DNA from: a virus | Taxonomy: Duplodnaviria; Heunggongvirae; Uroviricota; Caudoviricetes | Direction: 5' to 3' (one strand) | Length of the DNA: 27,463 nucleotides | Virus record (IMG/VR): IMGVR_UViG_2545824714_000008 | Shown: piece after piece, positions 2,622 to 12,938 of the stretch | How positions within the stretch are numbered: position 1 is the stretch's first letter | How the letters are laid out: each line of letters begins with the position of its first letter | Notes under the pieces: model-generated | Told to the model about the DNA's origin: nothing | Database searches by the model: none | What the model saw: only the letters and a program-made list of their open reading frames with translations | Made by a program: the position numbers and the translations under genes

Positions 2622-3431
2622 GTGTCAAAAAAGGATACAATCCAGATTATCGATATCAGGATGCAGAGACCAATCATAGCAAGAATAGAAGAAGAAAATT
2701 TAAATTTGACATTGCAAATGTCAGATAAAGCCACATTATCTGGTGCGACAGTTAGTTTTTTCACCCCAAATAACGTTTCTATATTCTTATCCTCAGCAAA
2801 AAAAGAGCTCTCAAAATCCAATTCTATATATAAAAGTCTTTTTGGAAAAATACACAAAACCAAACATAAAAACTTTAAAATTTCCGACAAAGCCCTGCCG
2901 AGACTCTATAATTACTTTGAATCAATTCAGACGGCCATTATTTCTATGTATACTGCAATTGAGTCTTTTGCAAATATATGCATACCACATGATTATGTTT
3001 ATGAAAAAAACAATGCCAAGGGAATCAAAGAATCCTATAGCAAAGAGCTAATTGAGCGATATATACCAACAAGTGAAAAAATAGATAAAATCCTACCGTC
3101 TATTTTAAATTGTGATTCGCCTAAAGGTTCAAAACTATGGCAAGATTTTAAAAGCCTTGAGTCACTTAGAAATGACATAATTCACCCCAAGACAACAAAG
3201 AAAAACACAGAAACAAAAGAAGACTCATCTTTTTTATGCATTTTACTATCAGATGACTTTATAAAAAAAGTTTCCTGTGGATTTGATTTGGTATCTTATT
3301 TTTGCAAACAAGACACTACTCATAGTCTTTTCCCAATGGGTTTCGGTGAAATTGAACTTAAACCTGTCCCAATTAAAGCCGGTGACTTTGAAAAAGTTGA
3401 TGATCATGATGAAATAGAATTACCATCATAA
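2622..3431 (+). CDS. Hypothetical protein, low-GC orphan (about 269 aa from GTG 2622; the ORF opens at TTG 2586)
   Basis: Long uninterrupted ORF in markedly AT-rich DNA with GGAG 6 nt before GTG 2622. Contains an R-x4-H stretch (LRNDIIHPK). No family recognised. Confidence 0.6.
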   Translation: MSKKDTIQIIDIRMQRPIIARIEEENLNLTLQMSDKATLSGATVSFFTPNNVSIFLSSAKKELSKSNSIYKSLFGKIHKTKHKNFKISDKALPRLYNYFESIQTAIISMYTAIESFANICIPHDYVYEKNNAKGIKESYSKELIERYIPTSEKIDKILPSILNCDSPKGSKLWQDFKSLESLRNDIIHPKTTKKNTETKEDSSFLCILLSDDFIKKVSCGFDLVSYFCKQDTTHSLFPMGFGEIELKPVPIKAGDFEKVDDHDEIELPS

Positions 3432-3479
3432 CAAAAAAACACAAACCATAAAGACGGCCATAGGTGGTCTTTATGGTTT
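3431..3479 (-). terminator. Rho-independent terminator downstream of int (minus-strand sense)
   Basis: Perfect 13-bp inverted repeat AAACCATAAAGAC / GTCTTTATGGTTT (3443..3455 and 3467..3479) with an 11-nt loop, followed on the minus strand by a U-rich run (GTGTTTTTTTGT). Confidence 0.6.
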
Positions 3480-3547
3480 ACAATAGACGCAGCCGTTATT
3501 AAATTTAAATCCAACAGCGTTAAAATAAACTAACAATATACGCATAA

Positions 3548-7880: not shown

Positions 7881-10103
7881 TTGGCTGTTCAATTCGCTTA
7901 TCCGTGGAACGTCCCACGGTCGGCAATCTCCAGCCCATACCTTACTTATGAGCAACAGCATCGCCGCGACCGTATGTTCGCGGCTTTGCTGCATGCAAAA
8001 AAGGGGCTTTCTCTCCAGCCCGACTGCGTGCGGTTAGATGTTTATCGCACTGCTGCGGTGCTGGAACAAAATCAGGGTAGTAAACGAGCCAATGCATTTT
8101 TAATCAGCTTCTGCAAAAAGGCATTGCCGCGTCTTGAACTGGTCGCAAAAAAATACGAATGCGCTGGTATCAACAGCAAGGTATCAACCGCTGTTTTTGG
8201 AAGTCATTTTGATACTCAGCAAATGCAATATCTGTCGTCACGCATGGTTAATATGGTCGCCCGATATAACCGTCTCCCGGACATGTCGCGCGCTGATGTT
8301 GACCTGTTGGCCGCTGATATTGCTAATTTCATTCGTGGTGAACTTGCCAACATTAATGACCACGGATTCGGCGAGCTTAAAACGCTGTACACCTGGTATA
8401 TTCGTGCTGGCTTTATTTCCCTCCAATTCAACGTTATCCCACCACATTGGGAGCGGGTTGAAAAAAAATATGTCGGTGCGGATGAAATCGCACCGGCTAT
8501 CGCCAAAATGTTTAACGATGGGTGGTGGCGCGGTCGTTTGCGCCGTGTAGCAGCTACGTGGCGCGAACACCTGCAAATTGCAGTCGGCAACGTCAGTAAG
8601 AAAAAAAACACTTACGCGAGTAAAAACTGCGTGACTGACTGGCGTGAACAAAAGCGCCGCACTCGTGAATTTCTCAAAGGTCTGGATCTCGAAGACGAAG
8701 ACGGCAACCGTATCAGCCTAATTGAAAAATATGATGGCTCAGTTGCTAACCCTGCGATTCGCCGCTGTGAGCTCATGACCCGCATTCGTGGGTTTGAAAA
8801 CATCTGTAATGAGCTCGGTTATGTCGGTGAGTTTTACACTCTAACCGCGCCGTCAAAATATCACGCCACGACTAAAGCCGGTTACCGTAACAGCAAATGG
8901 AGCGGTGCCAGCCCGGCTGACACGCAAAACTATCTAACCGGTATCTGGGCGCGTATCCGTGCCAAACTACATCGGGAAGATGTCCGTATTTTCGGTATTC
9001 GTGTCGCCGAGCCCCATCACGACGGCACTCCACACTGGCACATGCTGATGTTCATGCTGCCGGAAGATGTTGAATATGTTCGCTCCATCGTCCGTAAATA
9101 CGCATGGAAAGAAGACCGCCACGAACTGAAAAGCGATAAATCCCAAAAAGCACGTTTCCACGCGGAGTCCATTGACCCGGAGAAAGGCAGCGCAACCGGC
9201 TATGTTGCTAAATACATTTCAAAAAATATCGACGGTTATGCTCTCGATGGTGAAACCGATGATGAAAGCGGTGAGCTGCTGAAAGAGACAGCCCCCGCCG
9301 TTTCAGCATGGGCTGCGCGCTGGCACATCCGTCAGTTTCAGTTTATTGGTGGTGCGCCGGTGACGGTTTACCGTGAGTTGCGTCGCCTCGCTGATACCGA
9401 AACCGCGCACGGTCTGAGCGTTGAGTTTGCCGCCGTCCATGATGCCGCCGACGCTGGTGACTGGGCTGGTTATGTTAATGCTCAGGGTGGGCCGTTTGTC
9501 CGTCGCGATGATTTACAGGTGCGCACACTGTATGAACCGCGTACCGAGCTTAATCAGTACGGTGAGGAAACGGTATGTATTAAGGGGGTCTACGATTCCT
9601 CCATAGGTGCAGGAAGCCCGATTTTAACCCGGCTCACTCAGTGGAAGATTGTTCCGAAGCGTGCTGTTGATTTGGCCGTTGACCTTCAGGACGGCAAAGC
9701 CGTCCCTCGGAGTTCTGTCAATAACTGTACGGGAAGCGAAAGCGATCCACCGATACTGGATTTAACAAAACCACTGAGTCGGCGTGAAAGACGAGAATTG
9801 ACCAACCTACTCAGGAAGCAAAAGCCAGCAGCACGGCGAAAATTCATCCACGGAACGGATGAGCAAAACGCAGCTATAGCTAAAACTATCGATGAGATAC
9901 ATCTGACAACCGGCATTAATATCAGCCGGGGCGAAGCCCTGCACCTGATGGCCGGTGGTAAAAGTTGTTTTGATGGTAAATGGCTACGCGGAACGGCCAA
10001 AGGAGAAATATTTTCCGCAGCACCATCGCATGAGGCTAAAGCTCGGAAAATCCTTAATCGTGTTGCGGCGATGGCTGAAGCATCAAAACCAATACATGAG
10101 TAA
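7881..10103 (+). CDS. A: Rolling-circle replication initiation protein (P2 gpA family)
   Basis: 740 aa containing EPHHDGTPHWHMLMF and GYVAKYISKNIDGYALDG, matching P2 A motifs as recalled. TTG start with GGGGGT upstream. Confidence 0.9.
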   Translation: MAVQFAYPWNVPRSAISSPYLTYEQQHRRDRMFAALLHAKKGLSLQPDCVRLDVYRTAAVLEQNQGSKRANAFLISFCKKALPRLELVAKKYECAGINSKVSTAVFGSHFDTQQMQYLSSRMVNMVARYNRLPDMSRADVDLLAADIANFIRGELANINDHGFGELKTLYTWYIRAGFISLQFNVIPPHWERVEKKYVGADEIAPAIAKMFNDGWWRGRLRRVAATWREHLQIAVGNVSKKKNTYASKNCVTDWREQKRRTREFLKGLDLEDEDGNRISLIEKYDGSVANPAIRRCELMTRIRGFENICNELGYVGEFYTLTAPSKYHATTKAGYRNSKWSGASPADTQNYLTGIWARIRAKLHREDVRIFGIRVAEPHHDGTPHWHMLMFMLPEDVEYVRSIVRKYAWKEDRHELKSDKSQKARFHAESIDPEKGSATGYVAKYISKNIDGYALDGETDDESGELLKETAPAVSAWAARWHIRQFQFIGGAPVTVYRELRRLADTETAHGLSVEFAAVHDAADAGDWAGYVNAQGGPFVRRDDLQVRTLYEPRTELNQYGEETVCIKGVYDSSIGAGSPILTRLTQWKIVPKRAVDLAVDLQDGKAVPRSSVNNCTGSESDPPILDLTKPLSRRERRELTNLLRKQKPAARRKFIHGTDEQNAAIAKTIDEIHLTTGINISRGEALHLMAGGKSCFDGKWLRGTAKGEIFSAAPSHEAKARKILNRVAAMAEASKPIHE

Positions 10104-10177
10104 TTCATATCCATATCATGCACATACAGCAATCGCTCTATTCGTTTTTTTTCTTCCCATCTTTTGCCAATACGTGC

Positions 10178-10197
10178 TACTGTATAAATATACAGTA
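10178..10197 (+). promoter_or_regulatory. LexA (SOS) box overlapping a promoter, upstream of a small-ORF operon
   Basis: TACTGTATAAATATACAGTA is a perfect CTGT-N8-ACAG box with an AT-rich spacer, about 20 bp upstream of the ATG at 10217. Confidence 0.8.
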
Positions 10198-10216
10198 ACC
10201 CTGTGGGAGGGATTTC

Positions 10217-10399
10217 ATGGTTGGCGAACATTTCAGCCGAACGCAGCAAAAGTGGGCTTGTGTGCAATTTATTGCCGAGGTATCTCTGATTGCAAACTGC
10301 AAGCCATCAGACTTAAAGCTCGCGCTCACTCTCATTGCAGACCTAGCAAACAGCGAGAATAACGAAACCGAAGATGATAATTTTTATAAGGCTGATTAG
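10217..10399 (+). CDS. Small SOS-regulated protein (candidate Tum-like antirepressor function)
   Basis: 60-aa ORF with GGGAGGG upstream, directly downstream of the LexA box. Confidence 0.55.
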   Translation: MVGEHFSRTQQKWACVQFIAEVSLIANCKPSDLKLALTLIADLANSENNETEDDNFYKAD

Positions 10400-10402
10400 A
10401 TT

Positions 10403-10636
10403 ATGAGAATCAATATCACGTTGGATAAAGAGCAAAAAATTAGTCAGGCAACATTGGATGCACTTGAGGCTGAACTGTACCGCAATCTTCAACCTATTTA
10501 CCCAAAGACTGCTATCCGAATTCGCAAGGGCTCCGCTAATGGCGTTGAACTAAGCGGTTTGAAACTGGACGAAGATAAAAAACGAGTAATGGAAATCATG
10601 CAGCAGGTATGGGAGGACGATAGCTGGCTGCATTAA
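10403..10636 (+). CDS. Small hypothetical phage protein
   Basis: 77-aa ORF, 3 nt after the preceding stop, followed immediately by repeat copy 1. Confidence 0.55.
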   Translation: MRINITLDKEQKISQATLDALEAELYRNLQPIYPKTAIRIRKGSANGVELSGLKLDEDKKRVMEIMQQVWEDDSWLH

Positions 10637-10638
10637 CA

Positions 10639-10707
10639 AACGCCGCCGGTGCTGAAACTTGCTTTCAGTGCTGGCGGGGTTGAACAACTCGCACCGCGAG
10701 GCGCTAG
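10639..10707 (+). repeat. 69-bp structured repeat, copy 1 (imperfect dyad CCGCC..CTGAAA / TTTCAG..GGCGG)
   Basis: About 86% identical to 11044..11112 and starts 2 nt after a stop codon. Confidence 0.7.
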
Positions 10708-10831
10708 TTCTTCCTCTCAAAGTTTCTCGATGTTTTATTGGTTACACACCAGTGATGAATGGGACGTTACCTTAGCGGGTTTTATAGTGGCGCTGTGGCA
10801 GCGCTAAATAAAATTCATTGAGGGCGATAAT

Positions 10832-11041
10832 ATGCATCGACTACCGGGCGAAATTCCGCAGCACAAAACTAAAAGCATCAAACTGATGGCCATCGTTCAT
10901 CGTCTGCAGCAGATAATGGTCAATGAGAATTTGACACCCGCCGAGCTGGTCGGGTGTGCCGAAATAGTCAGGGATAATTACGGCAAGCTGGATAGCATCA
11001 GCAAGCCGACACATTACTCACCGCCACCACGTCGACCATAG
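10832..11041 (+). CDS. Small hypothetical phage protein
   Basis: 69-aa ORF with GAGGG upstream, followed immediately by repeat copy 2. Confidence 0.55.
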   Translation: MHRLPGEIPQHKTKSIKLMAIVHRLQQIMVNENLTPAELVGCAEIVRDNYGKLDSISKPTHYSPPPRRP

Positions 11042-11043
11042 AT

Positions 11044-11112
11044 AACGCCGCCGGAGCTGAAACTCGCTTTCAGGTCTGGCGGGGTTGAACAACGAGCTAC
11101 GCGAGGCGTTAG
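11044..11112 (+). repeat. 69-bp structured repeat, copy 2
   Basis: Same dyad as copy 1 and starts 2 nt after the stop codon. Confidence 0.7.
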
Positions 11113-11174
11113 CCGGTCATAGCGTCGCAAATACTTCAACCGTCTGCTGGTTAAATAATTCGAGGTTTTTGGAC

Positions 11175-11369
11175 ATGCAAAATCCCCTTTCATCGAAAAA
11201 TGACCCGTTTGCCGATTGGGCAAAGAATCTGACTTTAATGGCTTTAAATAACGACCTGAGCTCTCGCGAGGTGGAAAGCTACACCGCAAAAATGGTCGGG
11301 CAGGCCGGTAAAGATGAGCTATCAGTCGTTATCAAACACCTGTTAAATCACATCAGAATGCGCAAATAA
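11175..11369 (+). CDS. Small hypothetical phage protein (ATG 11175; the ORF opens at TTG 11085 inside repeat 2)
   Basis: GAGG about 9 nt before ATG 11175, giving 64 aa. Confidence 0.45.
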   Translation: MQNPLSSKNDPFADWAKNLTLMALNNDLSSREVESYTAKMVGQAGKDELSVVIKHLLNHIRMRK

Positions 11370-11385
11370 GAGGAACTATATAAAT

Positions 11386-11487
11386 ATGTTATCTCTCGTT
11401 TATGAAAATCCGTGGACGACGATTTTTCTGATGATTGTTGCCAGCATGTGCCTCAACAGTGTTATTGGCGCATTGCGCGGCCATTAA
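11386..11487 (+). CDS. 33-aa hydrophobic peptide (MLSLVYENPWTTIFLMIVASMCLNSVIGALRGH)
   Basis: AAGAGGAA about 10 nt upstream of the ATG, one predicted transmembrane-like segment, followed by a strong terminator. Below the 60-aa cutoff of the ORF track. Confidence 0.4.
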   Translation: MLSLVYENPWTTIFLMIVASMCLNSVIGALRGH

Positions 11488-11506
11488 TCGCGACAAAACC
11501 AGACTA

Positions 11507-11535
11507 AAACCGGCACCCTGAATGCCGGTTTTTTT
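11507..11535 (+). terminator. Rho-independent terminator ending the early/SOS operon
   Basis: 9-bp stem AAACCGGCA / TGCCGGTTT with loop CCCTGAA, followed by a T7 run. Confidence 0.8.
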
Positions 11536-11695
11536 ATGCCATTTTTCCGCGAATTTCCCGTTTTTTAGTCGTGCATGCATCAGGTGCATGGTTTTGCATG
11601 CGTCAGTCTTGCCCGTTCTGTCCGTGCGCCGCCAGAGCTAGCGCGGATCCAGAGTTGTCATGCAACTGCATTAAAACCGCCCCATAAAGCGGGCA

Positions 11696-11714
11696 GGCGT
11701 GGCGGGGAAAGCAT
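11696..11714. other. cos site (19-nt cohesive-end sequence of 186/P2 type)
   Basis: GGCGTGGCGGGGAAAGCAT matches the 186 cohesive end as I recall it (P2: GGCGAGGCGGGGAAAGCAC). Lies between the replication and portal sides as expected in a prophage. Confidence 0.7.
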
Positions 11715-11933: not shown

Positions 11934-12938
11934 CTAATTTACATGTATGTAGAGTTCACCGTCGCCAGACCAATCGGGACACTCTAAAACAAGCCCAAAC
12001 TGCTTGAATATTTCATCAATGATTATTGTTATCTCCCGAAAATCACCAAAACCTGTAATGTGCTGGTCATTAAACTTCCCATAAAGATTCTGAAAAGCAA
12101 TGCCTAATTCTGATAATTGATATCTTATCTTTGAGTTGGATAGTGTAAGGGATAGCTTTGGATCGTATTCTTTAATATTGATGTTTAGAGAATGGACATA
12201 ACCCATCGCATAAGCATAAGAGTTGATGATTAGCCTGATACGTTTTTTTACTTCAAGATACATGTCATTCAGAGAAATATTACCGTACTTATAACCCCAG
12301 ATGAGTTTTTCAATCTCGTCAGATACTTCATTTACAACAGTGTCAAGATTCTCTAAAAATAAATCGACAGTTTCTTGAGGGGCAGACCCCGAAGACATGT
12401 AATTAGCGAGATATTCAGACCATGCACGCGTGGCTGAGATAAGAAGCGCGCTACCATACTCGTTGACTGTAAAGTTTTGGGCTAAGCATGTTAGTAAGTT
12501 TTTTTCATGTACGTGCACTAATTCATGGTGAATGCGATGGATGACTGCGAGGTATCCTTCTTCTTTCAGTTTTAAGAAGCTACCATCATTGAAAAGCTCA
12601 ACAAAAAAATCAATCGATAGCACAAGGGTATATTCTTCATATAGCCCATCATTGCCAATTTTTGTTACTAACTGCCCGACGGCTGCGCCCTGTTTGCTAT
12701 TGGTAAATGAACTAGGGGATTTGTGTTGGTAAGAGGATGTTACCTTTTGAAGAGCTTCACTGAAGTTATAGGAAACAATCACGCATTTTAATTTGGAGAT
12801 ATCAAGATTGAGATTCTTTGTTAAAGCTCGGATAGCTTCTAGTGTGAAATTACCGATATTATTTGCTTCTTGCTCAGTAGCGAAACCTTCGAGGGTTATT
12901 TTAAAATCAGTTTCCAAAATATTAATCTCCGCGCCCAT
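11934..12938 (-). CDS. Orphan 334-aa protein in a low-GC insertion between cos and the portal gene (candidate accessory/defence gene)
   Basis: Uninterrupted ORF in AT-rich DNA, co-oriented with portal and terminase. Contains an HHELVH (HExxH-like) stretch and no obvious membrane segments. No Shine-Dalgarno evident. Confidence 0.65.
   Translation of the reverse strand: MGAEINILETDFKITLEGFATEQEANNIGNFTLEAIRALTKNLNLDISKLKCVIVSYNFSEALQKVTSSYQHKSPSSFTNSKQGAAVGQLVTKIGNDGLYEEYTLVLSIDFFVELFNDGSFLKLKEEGYLAVIHRIHHELVHVHEKNLLTCLAQNFTVNEYGSALLISATRAWSEYLANYMSSGSAPQETVDLFLENLDTVVNEVSDEIEKLIWGYKYGNISLNDMYLEVKKRIRLIINSYAYAMGYVHSLNINIKEYDPKLSLTLSNSKIRYQLSELGIAFQNLYGKFNDQHITGFGDFREITIIIDEIFKQFGLVLECPDWSGDGELYIHVN

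Follow-up and report, generated by a model that had tools for sequence, protein, structure and literature searches.

A repeated element in the SOS operon of a 186-like prophage

The DNA considered here (the window; the whole stretch of 27,463 nucleotides of the IMG/VR virus record IMGVR_UViG_2545824714_000008, Caudoviricetes) is a 186/PSP3-like prophage of the Peduoviridae and carries two copies of a 69-bp element, which is composed of a hairpin, designated P1, and a 3' tail. Both copies are located in the LexA-controlled SOS operon of this prophage, whose layout agrees with the annotated SOS operon of phage 186 and with the tumA/tumB region of PSP3 (Table 1). The operon is driven by a p95-like SOS promoter upstream of both copies, and the position of its LexA box corresponds to that of the annotated p95/LexA site in phage 186. 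The cos sequence on the right is identical to the annotated cos of the phage 186 record (nucleotides 1-19).

Table 1. Features of the window between the replicase gene and cos
Feature	Position	Strand	Remark
gpA-type replicase	7881-10103	+	
LexA box of the p95-like SOS promoter, TACTGTATAAATATACAGTA	10178-10197	+	CTGT-N8-ACAG, read from the sequence
Perfect LexA box, CTGTATAAATATACAG	10180-10195	+	
tumA-like open reading frame (ORF), 60 aa, phrog_1993	10217-10399	+	First gene of the SOS operon; PSP3 homologue annotated TumA
DinI-family gene, tumB-like, 77 aa	10403-10636	+	Pfam DinI PF06183, E = 7e-24
Repeat copy 1	10639-10707	+	2 nt past the stop of the DinI-family gene
Hairpin P1 of copy 1	10639-10681	+	Fold, covariance model, pair covariation in relatives
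Tail of copy 1, derived form GGTTGAACAACTCGCACCGCGAGGCGCTAG	10678-10707	+	GA>TC and T>C relative to the consensus
69-aa ORF, phrog_11386	10832-11041	+	Stop 2 nt ahead of copy 2; ORF and copy 2 form a module
Repeat copy 2	11044-11112	+	
Hairpin P1 of copy 2	11044-11086	+	Fold, covariance model
Tail of copy 2, canonical form GGTTGAACAACGAGCTACGCGAGGCGTTAG	11083-11112	+	Final conserved sequence ahead of the variable region
64-aa ORF, phrog_2454	11175-11369	+	Own ribosome-binding site; downstream of copy 2
33-aa hydrophobic ORF	11386-11487	+	Last of the operon; no family match
Intrinsic terminator, homologue of phage 186 t95b	11506-11539	+	Hairpin and T-run; aligns with the 186 t95b region
cos cohesive-end sequence, GGCGTGGCGGGGAAAGCAT	11696-11714	+	Right limit of the accessory region

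A reading of the letters alone (the sequence-only reading) had described the two copies as about 86% identical, and a repeat search together with a blastn comparison within the window confirmed this with 60 identical positions out of 69 (87%; E = 6.5e-20). The next-best match of copy 1 to the window has an E value of 0.19, and the 30-nt blocks flanking the repeats agree at 6-11 of 30 positions, which is the chance level and shows that the flanks are unrelated. A covariance model built from relatives has exactly two matches in the window, namely, the two copies (10634-10708 at 83.9 bits for copy 1 and 11039-11113 at 88 bits for copy 2). The start of each copy 2 nt behind the stop of a small ORF also held, the DinI-like ORF ending at 10636 and the 69-aa ORF at 11041. 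The proposed link of the repeat to a gene module is substantiated by the resulting units of dinI plus element and 69-aa ORF plus element, the latter being present without the former in the P2-type phages Wphi, P2-EC58, and P2-EC67.

Both copies fold in the same way, as AAC/GUU plus 15 bp with a 5-nt loop, in agreement with the imperfect dyad that they had been proposed to share. In copy 1 the hairpin comprises the AAC/GUU base, a G.G mismatch, the 15-bp stem, and a CUUGC loop. The folding energies of 91-nt segments amount to -39.4 (copy 1) and -38.1 kcal/mol (copy 2), with z-scores of -4.7 and -3.0 in comparison to shuffled sequences. The nine differences between the copies are found at repeat positions 12, 22, 31, 32, 51, 52, 55, 56, and 66. 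The claim that some of them fall on both arms applies to pair 12/32, where copy 1 has U.G and copy 2 has A-U in the one true compensatory change between the copies, but not to pair 13/31, where a G.U pair gives way to a G.G mismatch.

A covarying hairpin and a nearly invariant tail

The hairpin P1 occupies the first 43 nt of the element, and its helix consists of AAC/GUU, a mismatch, and 15 bp (18 bp paired). A scan anchored on the 3' part alone retrieved about 100 distinct elements whose 5' part is highly variable, yet always forms the same hairpin. In an alignment of 64 diverse sequences P1 is paired in 92.7% of the cells, compared to 34-46% for slid partners, compensatory changes are present in 14 of the 18 pairs, and the observed covariation was matched by none of 500 shuffles; RNAalifold independently recovered the identical helix. 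Of 105 cases, 86 fold better as the sense strand and 19 as the antisense strand, with a mean advantage of 6.7 kcal/mol for the sense strand, and G.U pairs outnumber A.C pairs about five to one (our own count on the RNAalifold alignment). The better folding of the sense strand and the excess of G.U pairs indicate that selection acts on the transcribed strand. The conserved structure that had been proposed is real for this half of the element, which is rich in compensatory change and has a clear, RNA-like strand bias, whereas the description of the whole 69-bp repeat as structured needs to be confined to its first 43 nt, because the last 30 nt are conserved in sequence rather than in fold.

The loops of P1 are chiefly of the CUNG type. 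In 186-type copies a pseudoknot between loop and tail (CUCG with CGAG) is possible; many loops are unable to form it, and the tail is invariant. The stop codon of the preceding gene is located 0-8 nt (mode 2) upstream of the base of P1, and it belongs to at least five unrelated ORF families including DinI, the 69-aa ORF, and orf97 of phage 186. With its 18-bp stem and G+C-rich lower half P1 has the G+C-rich hairpin of a terminator, but the sequence after the stem, UUGAACAAC, contains no U-tract and the terminator scan made no call. The missing U-tract and the location of the element upstream of t95b in phage 186 make a simple terminator unlikely.

The tail comprises the 3' 30 nt of the element, GGTTGAACAACGAGCnnnGCGAGGCGTTAG, and is nearly invariant. 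On its own it is not significantly structured, since its folding energies do not exceed those of shuffled sequences. A search anchored on DinI revealed the element directly behind the stop of the DinI gene in all 79 assessable loci, the tail being canonical or different at one position with the exception of proximal copies. A second search anchored on phrog_2100 recovered the identical 30-nt tail even next to proteins with an identity to the query of only 48-52%. The tail itself served as the anchor for part of the census, and the DinI- and phrog_2100-anchored sets represent fairly close phage lineages.

An ORF of at least 40 aa starts 1-5 nt past the terminal TTAG in 33 of 114 unique contexts, with the GAGG of the tail 8-9 nt from its ATG, and this position of the gene start indicates that the GAGG acts there as a Shine-Dalgarno sequence. 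The ORFs that begin right after the tail encode either a phrog_2100 protein of 85 aa or a UmuD'-like protein that is pre-truncated. In some relatives a 107-aa UmuD'-like protein is encoded directly downstream of dinI and the element; it starts at MGFPSPAQDYVE, i.e., it is already "cleaved", and we take the arrangement to be reminiscent of impC-impA and of humD of phage P1. The two copies in the window have no start codon at Shine-Dalgarno spacing behind either tail.

Other explanations of the tail were tried and rejected. Coding potential is contradicted by the reading frames, which run into stops or shift relative to the downstream ATG from phage to phage, and by the hairpin, which varies by compensation and not by codon. 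The motif TTGAAC could serve as the -35 box of a sigma-70 promoter, but no acceptable -10 box follows and the promoter scan found none. A mimic of the origin or nick site of the HUH protein gpA was dismissed because the core CTCGGAGTYCTGTCAATAAC of P2, 186, and the window occurs only inside gene A and has just CCTCG in common with the element, and no similar or complementary site was found that would link the element to the satellite P4.

A second, small hairpin within the tail (CGAGC-nnn-GCGAG with tandem G.A pairs) is proposed tentatively. It would account for the variable nnn, and both the GA>UC variant of copy 1 and one CCCGC/GCGGG variant fit it, whereas the folding energies of the tail, which do not surpass those of shuffled sequences, and quasi-palindrome correction, which could give the same changes, argue against it. 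The exchange GA>TC at 10688-10689 (compared with 11093-11094) converts CGAGC...GCGAG into the perfect palindrome CTCGC...GCGAG, and since a single template switch could yield it, it is not necessarily evidence for selection.

A universally conserved stretch of the glpK mRNA, with codons for T-N-A-S-R-T-M-L-F-N, is complementary to the tails at 10678-10707 and 11083-11112, and the pattern of the tail matched the glpK antisense strand of many bacteria. Several Enterobacterales show two perfect blocks of 10 nt, and E. coli K-12, in which the stretch corresponds to about nt 555-585 of the gene, agrees at 20 of 24 positions. The glpK stretch was the only candidate for a host target to surface, and nothing above background was found for complementarity to the tail elsewhere in the window or in the phage 186 genome. 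The binomial expectation for glpK-like sites is about 0.03-0.1 per genome, the RNAduplex energy of -35 kcal/mol for glpK is equalled by some five windows in the 30-kb genome of phage 186 alone, and the conserved GAGC and UUAG positions of the tail are not complementary to glpK. The complementarity is probably coincidental.

Distribution, boundary position and differential decay

The element was detected by BLAST in 66 phage records (Escherichia, Salmonella, Yersinia, Klebsiella, Erwinia, and Peduovirus), and 452 of 5426 complete E. coli genomes have it, in one or two places each. In a collection with one genome per species all true elements belong to the Enterobacterales, with genera including Citrobacter, Pantoea, Enterobacter, Leclercia, Serratia, Buttiauxella, and Kluyvera. 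The copy of phage 186 is located at 30341-30412 between orf97 and the terminator t95b. The element is missing from the reference phage P2 and is therefore accessory rather than essential. All contexts inspected, i.e., phage records, DinI-anchored loci, and plasmid hits, are P2-like prophages with the exception of one plasmid. A dispersed repeat of the repetitive extragenic palindromic (REP) type, a bacterial interspersed mosaic element, or a miniature inverted-repeat transposable element was rejected because there are only one or two copies per genome, and those whose context was inspected reside in P2-like prophages, apart from the one plasmid.

The plasmid hits represent P2-like prophages inserted in plasmids, apart from one small RepL plasmid. 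This exception is NZ_LR890238.1, a 3.7-kb RepL/MOB plasmid of Klebsiella with a segment at 1868-1945 (54 bits with the covariance model) that holds a perfect 30-nt tail inside a TGAGGG/CCCTCA inverted repeat, directly past a terminator-like hairpin. The segment varies among related small plasmids. It is a single case and the sole occurrence that we found outside P2-like prophages, and it is a hint that the tail may function as a module by itself.

A search of the whole window against Rfam 15 at gathering thresholds gave no match, and relaxing the threshold to E<=10 over 10100-11700 placed only a chance-level mir-998 hit on the element (19.5 bits, threshold 52). The element is unannotated in the GenBank records of 186, PSP3, Wphi, and P2-EC58/67, and we found no description of it in the literature on the P2 TO region, the 186 SOS operon, and the Fels-2/dinI small RNAs (sRNAs), although it may be mentioned in older papers on the P2 variable region. 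The element family appears to be new, but its kind is familiar, as it combines a conserved stem-loop with an expression signal beside accessory genes.

The similarity between phages ends exactly after TTAG, and more than ten different contexts follow downstream. Apart from the genes that start at the tail, they comprise a terminator within about 25-50 nt (186-type and Klebsiella-type), a second promoter with a LexA box, and unrelated cargo. In the P2-type phages Wphi, P2-EC58, and P2-EC67 and in an IncC-plasmid prophage, the homologue of the 69-aa ORF and the element are directly followed by variable cargo in the form of a methylase or of reverse transcriptases encoded on the opposite strand. 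The known gpA-gpQ hotspot of P2-type phages has its left edge here, and the region between gene A and cos of P2/186-like prophages is recognised as a place where anti-phage defence genes concentrate (Rousset et al. 2022, PMC9122126). The homologue of the 69-aa ORF in Wphi (3261-3498) is split by a frameshift and unannotated in GenBank, and the element behind it is intact. Several phages have a second LexA box (CTGT-N8-ACAG) about 25 nt past the element, followed by a phrog_2100 gene with its own ribosome-binding site; their SOS operon is divided at the element into two LexA-controlled units.

The two copies of the element have different fates. In 16 distinct two-copy genomes the nucleotide diversity of the genes and of both hairpins is 0.07-0.09, compared to 0.142 for the proximal tail and 0.016 for the distal tail, and it rises to 0.47 just past the distal tail, where the alignment collapses. 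All two-copy types have a derived proximal tail, and 10 of 12 types a canonical distal one. Copy 1 of the window is the redundant, decaying proximal unit and copy 2 the intact distal unit. The decay of the one tail and the preservation of the other suggest that the hairpin is kept behind each ORF, while one intact tail per operon suffices.

Two further ORFs of the window deserve mention. The 33-aa ORF that adjoins the operon terminator is strongly hydrophobic (MLSLVYENPWTTIFLMIVASMCLNSVIGALRGH) and in its size and composition similar to the small membrane peptides that are induced by SOS. A 334-aa ORF on the minus strand (11934-12938), between cos and the portal gene, lies where P2-type phages have their defence hotspot; it gave no match in Pfam or PADLOC and is possibly an uncharacterised accessory or defence gene.

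Possible roles of the element and their comparison with known systems

We tentatively favour an interpretation, derived from comparative sequence analysis, in which the element is a cis-acting intercistronic cassette that combines a protective or insulating hairpin with a portable translation leader, even though we hold its probability to be somewhat below even. It would act as a two-part element of the sense transcript in the SOS/accessory operon of the prophage. The hairpin would be a structural barrier that shields the upstream cistron from 3'-exonucleases and sets it apart physically, and perhaps kinetically, from the downstream sequence; the lack of a U-tract and the presence of genes and of t95b downstream indicate that transcription passes through P1. 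The tail would be a mostly unstructured leader providing, with its GAGG, the translation-initiation region of the next cistron. The commonest and presumably ancestral layout would be dinI-P1-tail-ATG, with a phrog_2100 protein or the pre-truncated UmuD'-like protein as the next cistron, and the window has two tandem modules of ORF and element, the distal of which has an intact tail with no start codon directly behind it. The near-invariance of the tail would moreover imply recognition by a conserved partner beyond the anti-Shine-Dalgarno sequence.

Several points weigh against this interpretation. The stabiliser role of P1 is an argument by analogy. The tail lacks a following start codon in phage 186 and many relatives as well as in the window, so that the leader role would not be the whole function of the distal tail in the window. 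An invariance of 27 out of 30 nt is far beyond the needs of a ribosome-binding site, and no partner was found. As part of the census was anchored on the tail, its conservation is overstated, and the DinI- and phrog_2100-anchored sets correct for this only within close lineages. Finally, the test of the distal tail in the two-copy set is weak by itself, with 3 variable sites against about 7 expected.

The hairpin part of the cassette would find its closest parallels in stabiliser hairpins such as the REP sequences of malE-malF and the very stable tetraloop hairpins of T4 intercistronic regions. Like these, P1 is a stable hairpin without a U-tract just past a cistron within an operon, and its loop is of a tetraloop type. 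In contrast to REP sequences, the element is not dispersed in the host genome, keeps a fixed distance to the stop codon, and has an invariant tail attached. For the combination of stem-loop and expression signal the nearest counterpart is found in T4-type phages, whose "PeSL" cassettes, as Arbiol et al. are said to have described in 2010, consist of an early promoter and a stem-loop flanking small ORFs in hyperplastic regions. The element shares with them the short conserved stem-loop and the expression signal beside small accessory ORFs at the edge of a variable region, as well as the occurrence of several copies that serve as homology points between modules. It differs in its signal, which is a translation leader with a Shine-Dalgarno sequence instead of a promoter, in the number of one or two copies per genome, and in the conservation of the tail far beyond the needs of a generic signal. 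A cis-acting hairpin and an adjacent conserved sequence that steer a polycistronic transcript are also known from lambda sib, the RNase III sites of T7, the lambdoid nut sites, and HK022 put; the element has no sequence or Rfam similarity to any of them, and unlike nut and put it is located at the distal end of its operon and not near the promoter.

The sequence-only reading had proposed an attenuator, a processing site, or a protein-binding site, duplicated together with a gene module, and this interpretation is partly supported. An attenuator or processing site, with P1 as a partial, factor-assisted terminator or as a site of RNase III or RNase E that sets the ratio of upstream and downstream cistrons or uncouples phage from cargo mRNA, is nevertheless unlikely in our view. 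It would suit the stable 18-bp helix (plus mismatch) right behind stop codons, and an insulator would be sensible in P2-type phages, where the cargo is often convergent. A precedent is the partial terminator t95a of phage 186 (GenBank U32222), which occupies the equivalent place in the same operon behind tum, after the DinI-like domain, and whose 3' side CATGGGGTTGTTTTGT resembles that of P1, GGCGGGGTTGAACAAC. The 3' stem edge GGGGTTG is common to t95a (1705-1736) and the window (10663-10690), followed by TTTTGT in t95a and AACAAC in the window, and on this similarity t95a and the element may be evolutionarily related. Unlike t95a and t95b, however, the element lacks a U-run (the stem is followed by just two U residues and was, as stated, not called by the terminator scan), is unannotated in the 186 record, and lies upstream of t95b, where the p95 transcript of 186 is annotated to end. 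The genes of the same operon past the element (orfX, the UmuD'-like gene, the 64-aa ORF of the window) require read-through, and attenuation or processing would leave the invariant tail unexplained.

The sharp edges of the element could alternatively reflect a boundary of cassettes at the DNA level, with the tail, and perhaps the hairpin as single-stranded DNA, serving as a joint for the exchange of accessory genes between P2/186-like phages. This would account for ORFs that precisely abut both edges, i.e., for the end of homology exactly behind TTAG in more than ten downstream contexts and for at least five ORF families that terminate within a few nt of the 5' edge, in analogy to integron attC sites or to the T4-type promoter/stem-loop cassettes. 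The tandem arrangement of ORF-plus-element modules, their occurrence in differing phage backbones, and the perfect tail on the unrelated 3.7-kb plasmid, in a segment variable among relatives, would agree with a joint. Like attC, the element forms an imperfect hairpin immediately behind the 3' end of a cassette ORF that has no promoter, with a variable middle and conserved AAC...GTTRRRY ends. Compared with the attC core RYYYAAC...GTTRRRY, the GTTGAAC at the base of P1 fits GTTRRRY as read from the sequence, and on the 5' side only AAC is conserved. However, the coding (top) strand of the element folds better, whereas the substrate of attC recombination is the bottom strand, and the strand asymmetry of P1 with its G.U pairs on the sense strand favours selection on RNA or on one strand. 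Neither the integron integrase IntI, which is absent from the phage records examined, nor another dedicated recombinase accompanies the element, the invariant stretch of 24 nt past GTTGAAC has no counterpart in attC, and an R''/L'' organisation or extrahelical bases were not seen. Sharp boundaries are likewise expected for a tail under selection with unselected flanks, and the plasmid is one observation. We regard a DNA joint as rather improbable.

Similarly doubtful is a more far-reaching proposal, according to which a conserved trans-acting partner, either a host or phage protein or an RNA, would recognise the invariant tail. Hairpin and tail together would then constitute a portable adaptor at the left edge of the P2-type defence/accessory hotspot, which defines this edge, sets the expression of newly acquired genes after SOS induction, and serves as a homology joint for cassettes that move between distant phages and occasionally plasmids.

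There is still less reason to regard the element as a decaying relic, in which the tail would be the native ribosome-binding region of the phrog_2100 gene, retained after gene replacement and functionless in the window. The phrog_2100 genes without dinI and P1 that keep the 3' half of the tail (..GAAGCGAGGC..) before their ATG, the visible decay of the proximal copy in the window, and the ability of reference phage P2 to do without the element would all be compatible with a relic, but the distal tail is canonical even though the hairpins differ by up to about 40% and no ORF is adjacent (186-, Klebsiella-, and Wphi-type), and its diversity is 4-9 fold below that of its neighbours in the same genomes. 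The least probable explanation, with very little in its favour, is a trans-acting RNA, i.e., a processed hairpin and tail (plus t95b in the 186-type) acting as an sRNA derived from a 3' untranslated region with the tail as a seed against a conserved host mRNA: the hairpin-seed-terminator layout of 186- and Klebsiella-type phages (intrinsic terminator 25-50 nt past the tail), the apparent sufficiency of one intact tail per operon, and the glpK antisense strand, which makes up about half of 120 genome hits to the tail pattern, would fit, but there is no consistent 3' end, the terminator of the window lies about 390 nt downstream, the layout is also absent in P2-type contexts, the glpK match is not clearly beyond chance, and we found no literature on glpK with prophage sRNAs.

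With its strong covariation and hundreds of instances the element is a candidate for a new RNA family, and a binding partner is suggested by the extreme conservation of its tail. P2/186-like prophages rank among the most common ones of Enterobacterales, and the position of the element at the left edge of their hotspot, behind the SOS genes dinI and tum, provides a handle on the expression of accessory genes upon induction and likewise on how these genes are exchanged.

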